DNA of 64,000 nt from Candidatus Dojkabacteria bacterium (GTDB lineage: Bacteria; Patescibacteriota; Dojkabacteria; B142; OLB20), in assembly GCA_035444565.1 (NCBI GenBank), contig DAOMOX010000003.1:31488-95487 (forward strand), in the 5' to 3' direction. The position numbers were made by a program, and so were the translations under genes. This document shows positions 1 to 35,208 of the stretch, in pieces. How positions within the stretch are numbered: the first letter of the stretch is position 1; the number at the start of each line of letters is the position of its first letter. Below the pieces are notes generated by a model, which ran no database searches, was not told the DNA's origin, and saw nothing but the letters and a program-made list of their open reading frames with translations.

Positions 1-1818
1 CTTTCAGGTTAGACCCGAAGCCAGGTGATCTATCCATGAGCAGGTTGAACCACCTCGAAAGAGGTGGGGAGGACCGAACCCGTGAATGCTGCAAAATTCT
101 GGGATGACTTGTGGATTGGAGTGACACGCTAATCGTACTTGGTGATAGCTGGTTCTCCTCGAAACAGCTTTAGGGTTGGCCTCGGTCGGTAGCATATGGA
201 GGTAGAGCTCTGAATGAATCGCGGGTCCCGTTAGGGATACCGCATTCTCTCAAACTGCGAATGCCATATGTGGAACACCGGGAGTTAGACTACGGGAGAT
301 AAGTTCCGTTGGTCGAAAGGGAAACAGCCCAGACCATCAGTTAAGGTCCCTAAATATATGCTAAGTGGCAAAGGATGTGAAATTTCATAAACAGCCAGGA
401 GGTTTGCTTAGAGGCAGCCATCCTTTAAAGAGTGCGTAACAGCTCACTGGTCTAGAAGTTTTGCGCCTATAATGTAACGGGGCTCAAGCATATTACCGAA
501 ACTATGGATTTATTATCGTGAAGATAATAAGTGGTAGAGGAGCGTTGTATTCAGCAGTGAAGGTGAGCCGTAAGGCCAGCTGGAGCGGATACAAGTGAGA
601 ATGCAGGCATGAGTAGCGCAATTCCGGTGAAAACCCGGGACACCGAATATTCAAGGTTTCCTTGGCTATGTTAATCATCCAAGGGTTAGTCGGTCCTAAG
701 CCGAGGCAGAAGTGCGTAGGCGATGGACATCAGGTTAATATTCCTGAACCGCTTTTAAATCGTTATCAACTATGGGGTGACTGATTTGGAAATGTTTTTG
801 AGTCGATAGGTCGACTTTCAAGTAGTAAGTTAGTTCTGTTTGGTAAATCCGGCAGAATGTTTCCTCGATTCGTCGAGGATGGATGCGAGCTATTACGAGA
901 AGCTGAAATCTACGGATGGAAGCAACATAAACTATTCAGGTCACAAGAAAATCCTCTATGTGAGAGTTAAAGGCGACCGTACCGCAAACCGACACAGGTG
1001 AATTGGTAGAGTATACCAAGGTGATCGAGTAACCCCTTGTTAAGGAATTCGGCAAATTTATCCCGTATCTTTGGTAGAAGGGATGCCCACTATTATTCGT
1101 AATGGTGGGTCGCAGAGAAATAGCCCAATCGACTGTTTAACAAAAACACAGGTCCCTGCTAAAGCGCAAGCTGACGTATAGGGGCTGACGCCTGCCCAAT
1201 GTCAGAAGATTACGGAAGGAGGTTATCCCGCCCTCAGAACTCTTTATAGAGTCTTGAGGGCGGGAGAAGCTTCTGACCTAAGTCCTGATGAATGGCGGCT
1301 GTAACTATAACGGTCCTAAGGTAGCGAAGTTCCTCGGCGCTTAATAGGCGTCCCGCATGAAAGGCGTAACGAGTTGGGCACTGTCTCAACAGGGGACTCG
1401 GCGAACATTGAAATGGCTGTGAAGATGCGGCCTACCCGCACCAGGACAAAAAGACCCCGGGATCTTTACTGTAGCTTGGCATTGAAACAATGCTTTCATT
1501 GTAGAGTGTAGGAGGGAGACTTTGAAACCCGCTCGCCAGAGTGGGTGGAGTCGCCAATGTAACACCTCCCTTTGTGTGTGTTGTTTCTTATCCCAGCCCC
1601 TGATCGGGGTGGGAGACAGTGTTTGGTGGGCAGTTTGACTGGGGCGGTTTCTTACTAAAAAGTAACGTAAGATTCCAAAGGTCGACTCAAGCTGGATGGA
1701 AATCAGCTGTAGAGCATAATGGTATAAGTCGGCTTTACTGCAAGACTGACAGGTCGAGCAGTCACGAAAGTGGGGCATAGTGACCCTTAAGTAGCGTGTG
1801 GAAGCGCTTTTGTTTAAA

Positions 1819-1849
<31 letters not shown>

Positions 1850-1884
1850 GTCTTGCCCAAGCGTCCATAGCGACGGCAAGGTTC

Positions 1885-1915
<31 letters not shown>

Positions 1916-1929
1916 AGGTGGAGAAGCTT

Positions 1930-1978
<49 letters not shown>

Positions 1979-2182
1979 AACCGACGTGAGTCAGGTTGGT
2001 CTCTATCCGGTGTGGGCGTTAGAATTCTGAGGGATCCGACCTTCAGTACGAGAGGACCAAGGTGAAGTAACCTCTGGTGCACCAGTTGTTCCACCAGGAG
2101 CATAGCTGGGTAGCCAAGTTGCTATTAGGATAAACGCTGAAAGCATATAAGCGTGAAGCCACTCCCAAGATGAGAATTCTTC

Positions 2183-2515
2183 ATCCCGCCCTGAAAGTTT
2201 ATAAATATCAGAAATATTCCAGAATTGTTAATTAAAATATCTTATGATTTTTTATGTATATATTTTAAAATCTAAAAAATTAAATAAGCTATATTTCGGC
2301 TTTACCCCGAATTTATTGGTAAGAATAAATAAACATAATTCTGGTAAAAGTCTTTTTACTTCTAAAGCCAAAGATTGGCAACTATTATATGCCGAAATGT
2401 TTATTAATAAACAAGACGCAGTTAATAGGGAACAAACGTTAAAACAGTTTGGCGGATCTTATAGAAGTTTGAAAAAAAGACTAGAAAATACTTTTATAGA
2501 TTTTCAGGGCGGGAT
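2183..2515 (+). other. Insertion (IVS or expansion) in 23S helix 98, bounded by a perfect 14-bp inverted repeat (ATCCCGCCCTGAAA / TTTCAGGGCGGGAT) and containing a GIY-YIG ORF
   Basis: The 23S sequence stops after GAGATGAGAATTCTTC (equivalent to E. coli GAGATGAGTTCTCCC just before H98) and resumes at AAAAGACTCCCAGTAGACTACTGGGTTGATAGGC. The intervening 333 bp are AT-rich, unlike rRNA. The boundary repeats are exact reverse complements. Confidence 0.75.
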
Positions 2516-2531
2516 AAAAGACTCCCAGTAG
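2244..2531 (+). CDS. GIY-YIG nuclease-superfamily small protein (YhbQ/UPF0213-like), encoded inside the 23S rRNA insertion
   Basis: ATG start. N-terminal FYVYILKS...LYFGFTPNL..R...HNSGKS matches the GIY-YIG core (GIY..YIG, then Arg and a His/Asn-SGK segment). The ORF is 95 aa and its last 5 codons plus stop run into resumed 23S sequence. Confidence 0.65.
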   Translation: MIFYVYILKSKKLNKLYFGFTPNLLVRINKHNSGKSLFTSKAKDWQLLYAEMFINKQDAVNREQTLKQFGGSYRSLKKRLENTFIDFQGGIKDSQ

Positions 2532-2883
2532 ACTACTGGGTTGATAGGCTCTAGGTGTAAGCCCTGTAAGGGGTTTAGCCAAGGAGATACTAATAAGTCG
2601 TAACTTAAGGAAATTTTATTGAATGTTAATGCCTTCGTATTTTTTATGAGTACGATAAAGTTCTCGTTTTTACGAGAATAGGTAGGTGAATAACTTAGAC
2701 AACTAAACCTCCATGAATTAGAATAGTTCATCCCGCCCTCTGTAAAGGGCGGGATAAACTCTGGGCGAGAGCCCAGGGGACCAGACTACGTTTAAAAAAC
2801 TAAAAACGTTATGAAGTTGATAGGTCCCGGATTAAATCCGGGACACCAGACTCCGTAACAGAAAACAAGTTTTTTGAACGGAG

Positions 2884-2999
2884 TCTGGTGATTGTAGCGT
2901 AGTGGTCCCACCTCTTACCATCCCGAACAGAGAAGTGAAACACTATAGCGCCGAAGATACTCGACCGGCAACGGTCCGGGAAAATAGGTCGTCGCCAGA
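2884..2999 (+). rRNA. rrf: 5S rRNA
   Basis: TCTGGTGATTGTAGCG...CCCACCTCTTACCATCCCGAACAGAGAAGTGAAAC...GGTCGTCGCCAGAA. It has a CCGAAC loop, a GGTCGTCGCCAG 3' region, and helix I pairing of TCTGGTGAT with GTCGCCAGA. A processing stem (CCAGACTCCGT...ACGGAGTCTGG) overlaps the 5' end. Confidence 0.85.
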
Positions 3000-3002
3000 A
3001 CA

Positions 3003-3033
3003 ATCCCGCCCTCAGAAATGAGGGCGGTTTTGC
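3003..3033 (+). terminator. Rho-independent terminator of the rRNA operon
   Basis: CCGCCCTCA-GAAAT-GAGGGCGG followed by TTTTGCGTTT. A GC-rich stem plus U-tract sits directly after the 5S gene. Confidence 0.75.
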
Positions 3034-3327
3034 GTTTAAAAACAGGAGATTTTAAGTACAACTAAACTGAGGGCGGGATAGGTTGCAAAAAATTAGGTCA
3101 ACTGTCCTTTGTTATCTCTATCCACTAAATCAAAATACTCCCACTAGATCTATGTTTCGGTAGGTCGGGAAGTATTTGCGAAAATAAATACAACTAAATC
3201 TTTCAATTAACATTAATCTCTCGCTATATTTATAATTAATCTCTATAATTTATTAGATTTATTGAAACAATTTTAGTTTGTAAAGAAATTCTATTTTATC
3301 TAGAATATAGTAGTTATAATAAAAAAA

Positions 3328-3636
3328 ATGAATGATACTGCCTATCAATCCAAATTAGACCCTACAGAAGCCTTATTAAGGATAGTCCACGGAGATACAA
3401 AAGACCTCCACATTCCCCACAAATCAATTGTCACCGGAAAAAAGATTAGAAATTCTATACTTCGAAAATTTGTAGAAAAATATAGAAGCTTGAATAAACT
3501 CACCGACAAACAGCTTATCGATGTTATAATGTCATTTGACGAGGTAGTTGAAAAGGAATTATTGACTGATGATTTATTAGAAAAAATCAGAAAAGACCCG
3601 TCAATATTGCAAAAATTTAATTCTAAAAAGAAATAG
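3328..3636 (+). CDS. Hypothetical small charged protein (102 aa)
   Basis: ORF with ATG start on the coding strand of the downstream genes. I recognise no motif. Confidence 0.4.
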   Translation: MNDTAYQSKLDPTEALLRIVHGDTKDLHIPHKSIVTGKKIRNSILRKFVEKYRSLNKLTDKQLIDVIMSFDEVVEKELLTDDLLEKIRKDPSILQKFNSKKK

Positions 3637-33439: not shown

Positions 33440-33555
33440 TGCTCAATAAGAAAAGTTAGTAAGCTGGAGAGGGGACTCGAACCCATGACCGACGGTTTAT
33501 CCCGCTGGAGCTGGGGGAGAGATTCGAACTCTCGACCTACTGTTTATCACTCCTC
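33440..33555 (-). repeat. Partial tRNA copies downstream of tRNA-Thr(UGU): a 37-nt exact duplicate of its 3' end (33463-33499) and a second T-arm/acceptor-like fragment (33500-33555)
   Basis: GCTGGAGAGGGGACTCGAACCCATGACCGACGGTTTA occurs at 33463 and again at the start of the real tRNA (33557). The neighbouring fragment contains GAGAGATTCGAACTCTC (T-arm-like) but no D or anticodon arm. Confidence 0.75.
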
Positions 33556-33628
33556 AGCTGGAGAGGGGACTCGAACCCATGACCGACGGTTTACAAAACC
33601 GTTGCTCTACCAACTGAGCTACTCCAGC
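33556..33628 (-). tRNA. tRNA-Thr (anticodon UGU)
   Basis: The reverse complement is GCTGGAGTAGCTCAGTTGGTAGAGCAACGGTTTTGTAAACCGTCGGTCATGGGTTCGAGTCCCCTCTCCAGCT, with anticodon loop TTTGTAA. Confidence 0.85.
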
Positions 33629-33640
33629 TGAGGAGTGACT

Positions 33641-34926: not shown

Positions 34927-35208
34927 ATGTGCAACTTATATATATTATTATGCAGGGACAACTCACTTTATACAGGTGTTGCTAAAGATATTGAAGAGCG
35001 TTTAGAAGTACACAATAGTGGCAAAGGGTCAAAATACGTTAACAGCAGGAAGCCATTTAAATTAATTTATACGGAATGTTTCGAGAGCTGGTCTGAAGCT
35101 TTGAAACGAGAGATTGAGATTAAGAAATGGAGTAGGGAGGAGAAAATAAATCGTCTTAAATTAAATATTGGGAATCTTCGAAACACCCCCCATATTGTCC
35201 GTAAATAG
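34927..35208 (+). CDS. GIY-YIG nuclease-superfamily small protein, second copy
   Basis: LYILLCRDNSLYTGVAKDIEERLEVHNSGKGSKY and a later conserved Glu. It is a paralog of the rRNA-embedded ORF at 2244. Confidence 0.65.
   Translation: MCNLYILLCRDNSLYTGVAKDIEERLEVHNSGKGSKYVNSRKPFKLIYTECFESWSEALKREIEIKKWSREEKINRLKLNIGNLRNTPHIVRK

Follow-up and report, generated by a model that had tools for sequence, protein, structure and literature searches.

The 23S rRNA gene at the start of the 64-kb stretch of DNA analyzed here (hereafter, the window) carries a 333-bp insert at the place of helix 98 (H98), in which a small gene for a GIY-YIG nuclease is enclosed by the arms of an inverted repeat. Comparison with other assemblies and with metagenomic loci indicates that a hairpin-bounded cassette, widespread in CPR/Patescibacteria and present outside rRNA genes as well, has one of its copies here.

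[quoted passage not shown] GIY-YIG ORFs in non-intron insertions of CPR rRNA genes have already been published (Tsurumaki et al., 2024, PMC11270868), in a survey that also cites Brown et al. (2015) on CPR rRNA-gene insertions encoding GIY-YIG proteins. Such ORFs number 15 for 16S and 15 for 23S genes in the survey, each in a non-intron insertion, and these 30 cases stand unexplained and are described as outside homing (PMC11270868). Its main text mentions neither H98 nor inverted repeats and touches on stems only in a general remark on insertion location; no site near E. coli position 2795 is among the frequent ones that it lists, and how the insertions spread and are removed is left open there (PMC11270868). 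The insert described here belongs to this documented category; what we add is the link to a hairpin cassette that reaches beyond rRNA, often by tRNA genes.

Position of the insert in the 23S rRNA gene

Window positions 1–2614 on the plus strand align to positions 701–2925 of the Rfam bacterial LSU model (cmscan, RF02541, 1965.9 bits), the 23S rRNA gene being truncated at its 5′ end by the window edge. In the alignment, the helix 98 loop is interrupted by 326 inserted nucleotides between CAUCC and GAU, in agreement with the location proposed in the preliminary description; the host hairpin corresponds to model positions 2817–2828, which is E. coli H98 at nucleotides ~2791–2805. At 326–333 nt relative to E. 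coli, the insert is well above the size of at least 100 bp used for recognizing CPR rRNA insertions. The whole element (2183–2515, +) comprises the left arm, a leader, the GIY-YIG ORF, and the right arm; it runs in the same direction as the rRNA, and the plus strand has no promoter-like site between 2183 and 2244. The 3′-terminal 23S segment, H99–H101, follows at 2516–2614 (+; model positions 2829–2925 in cmscan), and the 5S rRNA of the same operon at 2884–3000 (+; RF00001, 86.6 bits). No intron family reached the Rfam gathering score anywhere in the 64-kb window, in agreement with the earlier judgment that the insert contains no intron ribozyme.

The arms had also been thought to replace the native H98 stem, a view that the nearest reference 23S sequence contradicts. 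In this sequence (L048, from a Ca. Dojkabacteria MAG and 80% identical), 12 of 12 H98 model positions are deleted, that is, the site is empty. The spacing to the anchor GGTTGATAGGC is 41–45 nt in L048 and other loci titled Patescibacteria, 55–61 nt in most non-CPR loci, and 378–379 nt in the window; these lengths come from a scan of genome contigs with a general 22-nt 23S pattern, the matches of which were mostly Planctomycetota. Because native H98 is missing in CPR relatives and the L048 site is empty, we count the arms, and with them the entire 333-bp hairpin, as the insert. L048 is the sole empty site, at 80% 23S identity, and none was found in a close relative. The spot at which the insert sits is solvent-exposed on the ribosome.

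The closing stem

The arms ATCCCGCCCTGAAA (2183–2196) and TTTCAGGGCGGGAT (2502–2515) are exact reverse complements, and direct comparison confirms the perfect 14-bp inverted repeat first described as bounding the 333-bp segment (2183–2515). In the RNA, the 14 pairs are prolonged via G.U, U-A, and U.G to 23 contiguous pairs: the left arm of this closing stem, with 14 exact pairs and nine more including G.U and U.G, occupies 2183–2205 (+), and the right arm, which overlaps the last ORF codons, 2493–2515 (+). The minimum-free-energy fold (−101.8 kcal/mol, z = −6.3) has the 23-bp stem as its closing helix.

Over four alleles, 94.8% of cells are paired and three pairs show compensatory change: pair 11 is G-C, A-U, or C-G depending on the allele, and pairs 3 and 18 likewise differ on both sides. 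Slid controls gave 0 two-sided changes, and the covariation score was reached in 5 of 500 shuffles. The arms are 93% conserved, compared with 61–75% nucleotide identity for the ORF. The arms form a stem of 23–24 bp that is kept through compensatory changes. The conserved G.U pairs would be tolerable as G.T in a DNA hairpin and fail to separate an RNA-level from a DNA-level role.

Two ideas about the arms were dropped. A C-rich arm upstream of the ORF gives no polarity, a perfect inverted repeat being the same on both strands, and derivation of the arms from tRNA acceptor stems, suggested by the likeness of ACCCCCAC-A-CCA to a tRNA 3′ end, fails in that the neighboring tRNAs within L133 and L134 differ in their acceptor sequences.

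Alleles at the H98 site

The same H98 insert is present in other assemblies, as L010, L011, and L012 (identical ORF) and as L001, L002, L216, L217, and L218; four alleles occur in other assemblies at exactly the same 23S site. L218 has 23S flanks that are 99.7% and 99.0% identical to those of the window and a 5S gene that is 99.1% identical, and its insert shares 68% nucleotide and 58% amino acid identity with that of the window. The flanks of L001 and L002 are 94–96% identical to the window, yet their cassettes are more similar to it than the L218 cassette is. Because the L218 insert has diverged within a near-identical rRNA background, the histories of cassette and host rRNA are decoupled at the H98 site. 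Ordinary homologous recombination by way of the conserved rRNA flanks could have replaced the alleles without any part being played by the nuclease. A mobile, fast-evolving block at this place matters in work on CPR bacteria when phylogenies are based on 23S or rRNA-depletion probes are used.

ORF-less hairpins in the same operon

With one mismatch allowed, the 10-mer ATCCCGCCCT occurs 12 times against 1.5 expected, a number reached in 0 of 100 shuffles, and the eight exact copies all lie between 1225 and 3079. The arm sequence of the H98 insert is common to three ORF-less hairpins of the rRNA operon. One of them (1225–1266, +), with the same arm core (CCCGCCCTCAGAA...TTGAGGGCGGG), is at the tip of a domain IV helix, which by the E. 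coli sequence is probably H68, and prolongs it by 24 nt relative to L048. Another, ATCCCGCCCT-CTGTAA-AGGGCGGGAT (2730–2755, +), is in the 23S-5S spacer; its 5′ flank (2717–2729) and that of the H98 insert agree at 20 of 23 positions, and unrelated hairpins take its place in L012 and L218. The last (3003–3079, +), with the same arms (ATCCCGCCCTCAG and CTGAGGGCGGGAT) around a 51-nt loop, stands just 3′ of the 5S gene and includes a terminator-like stem (3006–3027) followed by TTTTG. Across the 64 kb of the window and 7.8 kb upstream there are four arm-motif hairpins, all in the 3′ half of the rRNA operon; the remaining ~69 kb of the examined sequence contain none, the three ORF-less copies of the operon being the only ones. 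This confinement, in place of wide dispersal, counts against the Ssn-like mechanism proposed below.

The GIY-YIG protein

The ORF (2244–2531, +) encodes 95 aa, and its match to the Pfam family PF01541 (E=1.3e-14, 54.7 bits, cut-off 22.6) bears out the GIY-YIG identity assigned in the preliminary description. The conserved protein ends near ...TFIDF (at about 2504); the C-terminal tail QGGIKDSQ arises where the reading frame runs on through the arm into 23S sequence, and L001 (87 aa) lacks it. Among 19 sequences, Y6, Y17, G19, R27, H31, N32, and E63 are invariant, and the catalytic-core residues are present: the tyrosines of the GIY and YIG motifs, the arginine, and the glutamate that binds metal. 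The AlphaFold model (pLDDT 84) has the GIY-YIG fold, a three-stranded sheet with helices in the order E-E-H-H-E-H-H. Foldseek matched this model to UPF0213 (1zg2), Slx1, I-TevI, and the UvrC N-terminal domain; the matches to UPF0213 and Slx1 have E values of 2e-4 to 1e-2, better than the 0.3 of the I-TevI catalytic domain. Among solved structures the best relative is 1zg2, at no better than E=3.6e-4. The protein is, in sum, a bare Slx1/UPF0213-like nuclease domain of 85–95 aa, about 85 aa of it conserved as a protein, without a DNA-binding module and with no family match in PHROGs, PADLOC, or NCBIfam. It is under purifying selection, with pN/pS of 0.17–0.45 at saturated pS (0.65–0.77) and an excess of third-position differences.

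Named homologues are from Paceibacterota and Moraniibacteriota. An HMM built on the CPR cassette proteins scores the ORF itself at 115 bits, the other GIY-YIG protein of the window at 69, and E. coli YhbQ at 41. That second gene, at 34927, had been called a paralog of the inserted one; it is only 30% identical, no repeats flank it, and its single-domain GIY-YIG subgroup is a different one.

Related cassettes outside the H98 site

Most relatives of the window protein are encoded outside rRNA. Of 75 assessable metagenomic loci that lie outside rRNA, about 63 have a homologous GIY-YIG ORF of 83–98 aa between inverted repeats; the bracketed loci have the conserved arm sequence ACCCCCACACCAATT, and the metagenomic cassette loci also contain hairpins with these termini but no ORF. 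Inverted repeats of 13–26 nt surround the ORF in L003, L004, L005, L008, and L009, and one of these cassettes (L003) is in a 16S rRNA helix. Cassettes that are 97.6%, 92%, and 89.5% identical at the nucleotide level are found in unrelated flanks. A tRNA gene is present within 150 nt in 15 of 82 loci, each time on the strand of the ORF (15/15). In L137 and L138, a 9-nt direct repeat (GGAGGCGTG) surrounds a short hairpin at the 5′ end of tRNA-Ser.

A proposed mechanism and its alternatives

The Ssn proteins (Chenal et al., 2025, PMC11893778) are single-domain GIY-YIG nucleases of ~94 aa, encoded by genes with hairpin repeats on either side. They cleave single-stranded DNA site-specifically beside a hairpin and are inactive on double-stranded DNA and RNA (PMC11893778). 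We consider it reasonably probable that the insert is a co-transcribed GIY-YIG gene in a hairpin that is cut by RNase III, with a nuclease acting in an Ssn-like manner. The cassette would be transcribed within the pre-23S RNA, and the stem would join both 23S junctions and let the ribosome fold as in relatives. RNase III would most likely cut the stem and remove the insert, leaving a separate 3′ fragment of ~100 nt (2516–2614) and freeing the ORF RNA for translation. By analogy with Ssn and its NTS repeat, the nuclease probably targets its own repeat as single-stranded (hairpin) DNA; the spread and turnover of hairpins with and without the ORF would then be explained.

A broader proposal, which we put forward tentatively and again by analogy, is that the GIY-YIG inserts of CPR rRNA genes may be an autonomous element: a single-domain nuclease, its gene lodged in the loop of its own recognition hairpin, would act on that hairpin as extruded or single-stranded DNA, as Ssn does; hairpins with and without the ORF would spread, with a preference for stable-RNA operons (rRNA helices and tRNA flanks); and the stem would serve in addition for RNA processing, rendering the insertion harmless and freeing the mRNA. 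No description of such an autonomous mobile element was found in the literature searched. If the nuclease does recognize its own hairpin, the Ssn principle would apply in a distinct protein subfamily and in CPR bacteria as well, and the presence of a protein gene in a single-copy rRNA gene without harm would be explained. With an Ssn/NTS-like architecture, a selected stem, and allele turnover independent of the host rRNA documented for the cassette, the puzzle of the GIY-YIG rRNA insertions is now open to concrete experiments.

The preliminary description weighed an excised intervening sequence against a retained expansion segment, and these proved to be the right pair of alternatives. The former, in its ordinary RNase III-type form, would make the GIY-YIG gene passive cargo unrelated to the function of the hairpin, the stem serving only pre-23S excision as for the S23p ORFs of Coxiella and Leptospira. 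A stem-bounded insert with no intron signature in a surface helix of 23S is what this explanation predicts, and Tsurumaki et al. (2024, PMC11270868) suggest that CPR bacteria may contain such insertions. We nevertheless think it unlikely: the ORF lies in a stem with conserved arms in dozens of rRNA-free loci, the arms are common to ORF-less hairpins, and their conservation exceeds that of the ORF. Processing of rRNA alone accounts for neither the non-rRNA loci, the ORF-less hairpins, nor the arm conservation.

We similarly doubt that the 333-nt hairpin is permanently retained and protrudes from the surface of the mature 23S rRNA, with the ORF translated, if at all, from precursor or free transcripts. 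In favor of such a segment, H98 lies at the surface and is variable or missing among bacteria, and eukaryotes have their expansion segment ES39 at this position. An uninterrupted 23-bp duplex is, however, a typical RNase III substrate (cited in PMC11270868). Because the ORF is under strong purifying selection, a translatable ORF RNA is implied, and this is harder to picture in an assembled ribosome.

The suggestion that the insert is a hairpin-targeting homing element has fared unevenly. Its mobile side is supported by the incongruence of cassette and rRNA trees at the same site (L218) and by related cassettes in unrelated flanks; its homing side sits poorly with a bare domain, the lack of a PHROG match, and relatives that are mostly outside rRNA. 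In the classical form, the endonuclease would cut uninterrupted 23S DNA at H98 and the insert would be copied in by repair. Four alleles at exactly one site, incongruent cassette and host rRNA trees, and a fold known from homing endonucleases are all compatible with this, but we regard it as improbable for a nuclease domain of ~85 aa that has no DNA-binding domain, no PHROG family match, and no intron, whose fold is nearer to UPF0213 and Slx1 than to the I-TevI catalytic domain, and whose close relatives occupy many non-rRNA sites with arms of their own. A chimera in which an rRNA contig was misjoined to a protein-coding one, for which nothing speaks beyond the general risk of metagenome assemblies, is ruled out for practical purposes by identical junctions in at least eight independent contigs from different samples in ENA and Logan (the eight loci named above), which include divergent alleles with compensatory stem changes.

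Comparison with known systems

Like the insertions surveyed by Tsurumaki et al. (2024), the present one is longer than 100 bp, lies in a CPR 23S gene without group I or group II intron signature, and contains a Pfam GIY-YIG ORF; documented here in addition are its covarying stem, the turnover of alleles, and the connection to cassettes outside rRNA.

With the RNase III-cut 23S intervening sequences of Coxiella, Leptospira, and Salmonella the insert shares a bounding stem, a place at the tip of a surface helix, the lack of a ribozyme, and the possible presence of a small ORF. The insert ends form a long duplex in both, here of 23 bp and supported by covariation, and a fragmented 23S rRNA is predicted here too. 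The site is different, H98 rather than the classical H9, H25, or H45, and cleavage is a prediction in our case. The cargo is a GIY-YIG nuclease instead of the four-helix-bundle protein S23p, an ORF for which is carried by the helix 45 intervening sequence of Coxiella burnetii (PMC4990558).

The 4.5S rRNA of land-plant chloroplasts offers a parallel for the predicted break. It corresponds to the 3′-terminal ~100 nt of 23S rRNA, as a separate molecule split near the H98 region. The ribosome can thus function with a break near H98. The chloroplast gene differs in having a fixed spacer without an ORF, and fragmentation in our case is predicted.

Palindromic REP/REPIN repeats and their RAYT genes resemble the cassette in pairing a small nuclease gene with palindromic repeats on its flanks, which occur in scattered gene-less copies too. 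RAYTs, however, are HUH/Y1 enzymes related to IS200/IS605, not GIY-YIG proteins, and REPs number hundreds of copies per genome, compared with four hairpins in about 72 kb here. I-TevI-type homing endonucleases differ from the cassette protein, which lacks a DNA-binding domain and is neither in an intron nor matched by a PHROG.

The nearest characterized system is Ssn/NTS, although the window does not contain the published repeat motif: the SRM pattern HGTCWYN(0-2)YYVSBRHN(0-5)WNVSBRGN(0-2)RNCYNB (Chenal et al., 2025) has 0 matches in the window and 4/4 in an Azospirillum control locus. An Ssn-like HMM, used as a proxy for CDD cd10448 (GIY-YIG_unchar_3), gives 47 bits for the CPR cassette proteins and just as much for the UPF0213-like paralog. 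With 0 SRM matches and a profile no closer than to UPF0213, membership in the Ssn family is not established, and the CPR cassette proteins form a separate subfamily. The sole plasmid match of the window ORF in tblastn is an Ssn-type gene flanked by canonical NTS-like repeats. The ORF here lies inside the loop of one hairpin, its flanks being half-sites, whereas Ssn genes are flanked by full hairpins; Ssn also cuts a hairpin assembled from two half-oligonucleotides (PMC11893778). The CPR host and the rRNA site are further differences, neither being mentioned in that work. The likenesses extend from protein to repeat: the CPR ORFs, at 87–98 aa with PF01541 as sole domain, are similar in size to Ssn; the gene has a hairpin-forming repeat on each side that is also found gene-less, as is the NTS/SRM repeat of the Ssn genes (PMC11893778); and the arm core TTCAT CCCGCC resembles the NTS sequence GTCAT TCCCGCG.

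The helix 98 insert and its boundaries

Alignment to the Rfam bacterial LSU model assigns window positions 1–2614 (+) to RF02541 positions 701–2925, and an Rfam scan places the 5S gene downstream, at 2884–3000. In a closer scan the 23S alignment of 1900–2700 is unbroken save at a small hairpin, model positions 2817–2828, whose E. coli counterpart is helix 98 (H98; nt ~2791–2805). There cmscan finds 326 extra nt, with CAUCC on one side and GAU on the other, which bears out the preliminary description of a 23S gene colinear up to an insert at H98. The arms of the insert, ATCCCGCCCTGAAA (2183–2196) and TTTCAGGGCGGGAT (2502–2515), are exact reverse complements, so the reported 14-bp inverted repeat is indeed perfect and the insert measures 333 bp. 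As RNA, pairing of the arms extends through G.U, U-A, and U.G to 23 contiguous pairs (2183–2205 with 2493–2515), and this stem is the closing helix in the predicted fold of 2160–2550 (−101.8 kcal/mol, z = −6.3). No intron family reaches the Rfam threshold in the window, in line with the earlier statement that the segment is too short for a group I or group II intron ribozyme. The insert is not an assembly artefact, because the same junctions are found across independent assemblies: in L010, L011, and L012, where the ORF is the same as in the window, and in L001, L002, L216, L217, and L218, which hold divergent alleles at this 23S site. We regard the identity and anatomy of the insert as very probably correct.

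The arms had been read as a replacement of the native H98 stem, a reading that comparison with relatives contradicts. Scanning species-representative genomes with the 22-nt 23S pattern just upstream of the site yielded 120 loci, for which the spacing between this pattern and the conserved anchor that follows, GGTTGATAGGC, was measured. The spacing is 55–61 nt in most loci from outside the CPR, among them every Planctomycetota-type match, where H98 is present; 41–45 nt in Patescibacteria-titled loci, where H98 is absent; and 378–379 nt in the window, L001, and L002. Among the 23S sequences sampled, the nearest is that of a Candidatus Dojkabacteria MAG (L048), 80% identical and colinear across 2195 nt; it reads GAATTCGTC-TGAGACC over the insertion site and has 12/12 H98 model positions deleted (cmscan). 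When 2183–2515 is removed from the window, the junction equals that of the H98-less relatives in length. An empty site of the kind to be looked for among related rrl genes exists in L048, and the arms are part of the insert, not native H98.

Allele history and rRNA history

The rRNA of L218 is nearly that of the window (711/713 identical positions in the 23S 5′ flank, 99.0% identity in the 3′ flank, and 99.1% in 5S), whereas the inserts share 68% nucleotide and 58% amino acid identity, the latter value also returned by the representatives search. L001 and L002, with flanks 94–96% identical to the window, carry cassettes nearer to its own (73–75% nucleotide identity). The history of the cassette, as read from these sequences, is decoupled from that of the rRNA, and the incongruence points to one of three processes: allele replacement at the site, recombination via the conserved rRNA flanks, or the persistence of old lineages.

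Selection on the protein and the stem

The ORF (2244–2531) encodes 95 aa and matches the Pfam GIY-YIG family (E=1.3e-14), as first assigned; the core residues Y6, Y17, G19, R27, H31, N32, and E63 are invariant in 19/19 family members. Among four alleles at the H98 site (window, L001, L002, and L218), the proteins are 51–79% identical across 84 aligned codons. Codon-aligned comparisons give pN of 0.13–0.31 vs pS of 0.65–0.77, with pS saturated, and differences pile up at third codon positions (e.g., 16/8/39 by codon position); the gene is functional and under purifying selection. The AlphaFold model of the product has GIY-YIG topology (pLDDT 84), and its best solved structural matches are UPF0213 BH0048 (1zg2) and Slx1, a structure-specific nuclease (TM about 0.6, rmsd 2.3–3.0), with the I-TevI catalytic domain ranking below them. 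Searches of PHROG, PADLOC, and NCBIfam with the ORF matched no family; in the full representative library, 3936 clusters matched with E<=1e-3, of which 160 also reached E<=1e-10. In the C-terminal tail, QGGIKDSQ, the reading frame runs on through the right arm and into the 23S; the L001 ORF, with its stop within the arm, has 87 aa. No promoter-like site was found within the insert.

Covariation among the four alleles indicates that the stem, too, is kept by selection. Stem cells are paired in 94.8% of cases, the arms are 93% conserved vs 61–75% nucleotide identity for the ORF, and two-sided changes occur at stem pairs 3 (C-G or U-A), 11 (G-C, A-U, or C-G), and 18 (U-A or A-U). Slid controls of the stem contain no two-sided changes, and the covariation score was matched in 5/500 shuffles, a modest statistic with n=4 sequences.

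The ORF at 34927–35208 (+), previously called a paralog, is a second single-domain GIY-YIG ORF but belongs to another subfamily and appears UPF0213-like. It encodes 93 aa, is 30% identical to the H98 ORF, and lies 500 nt downstream of tRNA-Ala; no GC-rich inverted repeat flanks it.

ORF-less hairpins in the rRNA operon

The arm core of the insert is found three more times in the operon, each time without an ORF: at 1225–1266, in a domain IV helix tip 24 nt longer than in L048; at 2730–2755, in the 23S-5S spacer; and at 3003–3079, directly after 5S, with a terminator-like stem nested within. All exact copies of ATCCCGCCCT (8/8) lie between 1225 and 3079, with none in the other 61 kb of the window nor in the 7.8 kb upstream (L010). 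The domain IV helix, presumably H68 to judge by the E. coli sequence, is just CTGCC-TTT-GGCAG in L048, and the 24-nt extension is made of CCCGCCCTCAGAA / TTGAGGGCGGG arms, as in the H98 insert.

The hairpin blocks between 23S and 5S differ from those of the window both in L012, where the ORF is identical, and in L218, where the rRNA is nearly identical; by this comparison the hairpin modules of the spacer turn over fast. Across 2729–2885, the blocks are unrelated among strains whose 23S and 5S are identical or 99% identical; a CCCGCCCTCC hairpin of L218, its loop about 80 nt long, extends into the 5′ end of 5S. At 2717–2760, the 5′ flank of the spacer hairpin (ATTAGAATAGTTCATCCCGCCCT) and the H98 junction (ATGAGAATTCTTCATCCCGCCCT) are alike at 20/23 positions, and this stretch resembles an ORF-less copy of the H98 element with a common flank. 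Positions 2804–2826 (GAAGTTGATAGGTC) echo the 23S segment GGGTTGATAGGC.

A wider family of hairpin-bounded cassettes

More distant homologues, about 45–53% identical, lie mostly outside rRNA and share the anatomy of the H98 insert. The L009 ORF sits within a perfect 20-nt inverted repeat, flanked by two protein genes; L008 has arms ATCCAGCCCTTCC / GGAAGGGCTGGAT; and L004 and L005, which lie in different gene neighbourhoods, have 20–26-nt arms nearly identical in sequence. The L003 cassette (ORF 1967–2224; arms 1934–1949 and 2220–2235, a 16-nt perfect repeat) is inside a CPR 16S gene (1869–3359), in what by inspection appears to be helix 6. Two more AT-rich, insert-like stretches can be seen by eye in L003, at about 2320–2450 and 3090–3290.

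A metagenome scan with one subfamily gave at least 525 confirmed pattern matches, and 80 loci were examined. Among the loci listed, conserved repeats (left ACCCCCACACCAATT, right AATTGGTGTGGGGGT) bracket the ORF in about 63 of the 75 that are assessable, the proteins are 57–100% identical to the query, and no rRNA is present. These loci also contain ORF-less hairpins that share the termini, with loops of a few to about 125 nt; two 111-nt copies in L180 (2378–2488, 2771–2881) are 106/111 identical. Cassette ORFs share 97.6% (L171/L172), 92% (L149/L191), and 89.5% (L005/L133) nucleotide identity between pairs of loci with no detectable similarity in their flanks, and the block common to L171 and L172 stops about 10 nt beyond the arms. 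A tRNA gene lies within 150 nt in 15/82 cassette loci, on the ORF strand in 15/15, and all rRNA-borne copies are co-oriented with the rRNA. The H98 insert is one copy of a wider family of hairpin-bounded cassettes, apparently mobile, that show an affinity for stable-RNA genes.

The palindromic elements of the metagenome loci (L133–L212) conserve their termini, ACCCCCACACC...GGTGTGGGGGT (e.g., L174 3000–3030, L180, L195 2314–2451), and hold no cargo, about 30–125 nt of non-coding sequence, or a GIY-YIG ORF. At L137 1735–1790 and L138 2712–2770, the 5′ end of tRNA-Ser is overlapped by a short hairpin, CCTCCACACCAA...TTGGTGTGGAGG, on either side of which stands a direct repeat of 9 nt, GGAGGCGTG, that may be a target-site duplication. 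In the window, a 17-bp perfect inverted repeat, TCACTCCTCAGCTGGAG, around tRNA-Thr(TGT) (33547–33638, −) lengthens the acceptor stem by about 10 bp and may be a leader-trailer processing stem.

A proposed mechanism

A hairpin-targeting homing element had been suggested; classical homing by the nuclease of the insert is unlikely. We propose that pre-23S RNA would include the cassette transcript and that the stem would bring the two 23S junctions together, so that 23S would fold as in H98-less relatives. RNase III would cut the 23-bp duplex, as in classical 23S intervening sequences, freeing the ORF RNA and leaving the 3′-terminal ~100 nt as a separate piece. A break in this 23S region is tolerated in land-plant chloroplasts, as their 4.5S rRNA attests. 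We lean slightly toward excision of the insert. The substrate of the nuclease would be its own repeat, folded as a single-stranded hairpin, and this activity would drive the spread and turnover of ORF-bearing and ORF-less hairpins; such Ssn-like activity, suggested by analogy, is a tentative proposal to which we give somewhat less than even weight.

Comparison with known systems

GIY-YIG proteins encoded by CPR rRNA insertions are described by Tsurumaki et al. (2024; PMC11270868), who cite Brown et al. (2015) and count 15 such ORFs in 16S and as many in 23S genes, every one in a non-intron insertion. The main text of that paper mentions neither H98 nor inverted repeats, and names stems solely in a general remark on insertion location. 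Because such insertions are published, the H98 insert is a member of a documented category; what the present analysis adds is its connection with a family of hairpin-bounded, apparently mobile cassettes of Ssn-like architecture, which makes the question on CPR GIY-YIG rRNA insertions directly testable.

Of the characterised systems, Ssn is the closest. Ssn enzymes are single-domain GIY-YIG proteins of ~94 aa that cut ssDNA beside a hairpin repeat, NTS/SRM, and are also active on a hairpin built from two half-oligonucleotides (Chenal et al., 2025; PMC11893778). The repeat stands on both sides of the Ssn gene and is scattered genome-wide, a layout that the authors liken to insertion sequences and REP/RAYT; rRNA and CPR are unmentioned in that paper. 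A plasmid search with the window ORF had as its sole match an Azospirillum lipoferum gene (34% identity, E=2e-4). On A. lipoferum 4B plasmid AZO_p3 (255380–255990), an Ssn-like GIY-YIG gene lies between sufB and sufC, with an inverted doublet of CGTCATCCCCGCGAAGGCGGGGATCCAG on each side that is canonical NTS-like and fits the published SRM pattern. This pattern has 0 matches in the window and 4/4 in the Azospirillum control. An Ssn-like HMM scores CPR cassette proteins and the UPF0213-like window paralog at 47 bits each, and a CPR-cassette HMM gives the paralog 69 bits and the Ssn-like protein 57. Membership of the CPR cassette in Ssn/SRM is not established, since the SRM pattern has no matches and the HMM scores are no nearer Ssn. 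The two are alike in architecture, and NTS (GTCAT TCCCGCG) resembles the arm core of the H98 insert (TTCAT CCCGCC); we would class the CPR cassette proteins as a single-domain GIY-YIG subfamily of their own, in a system Ssn-like in look.
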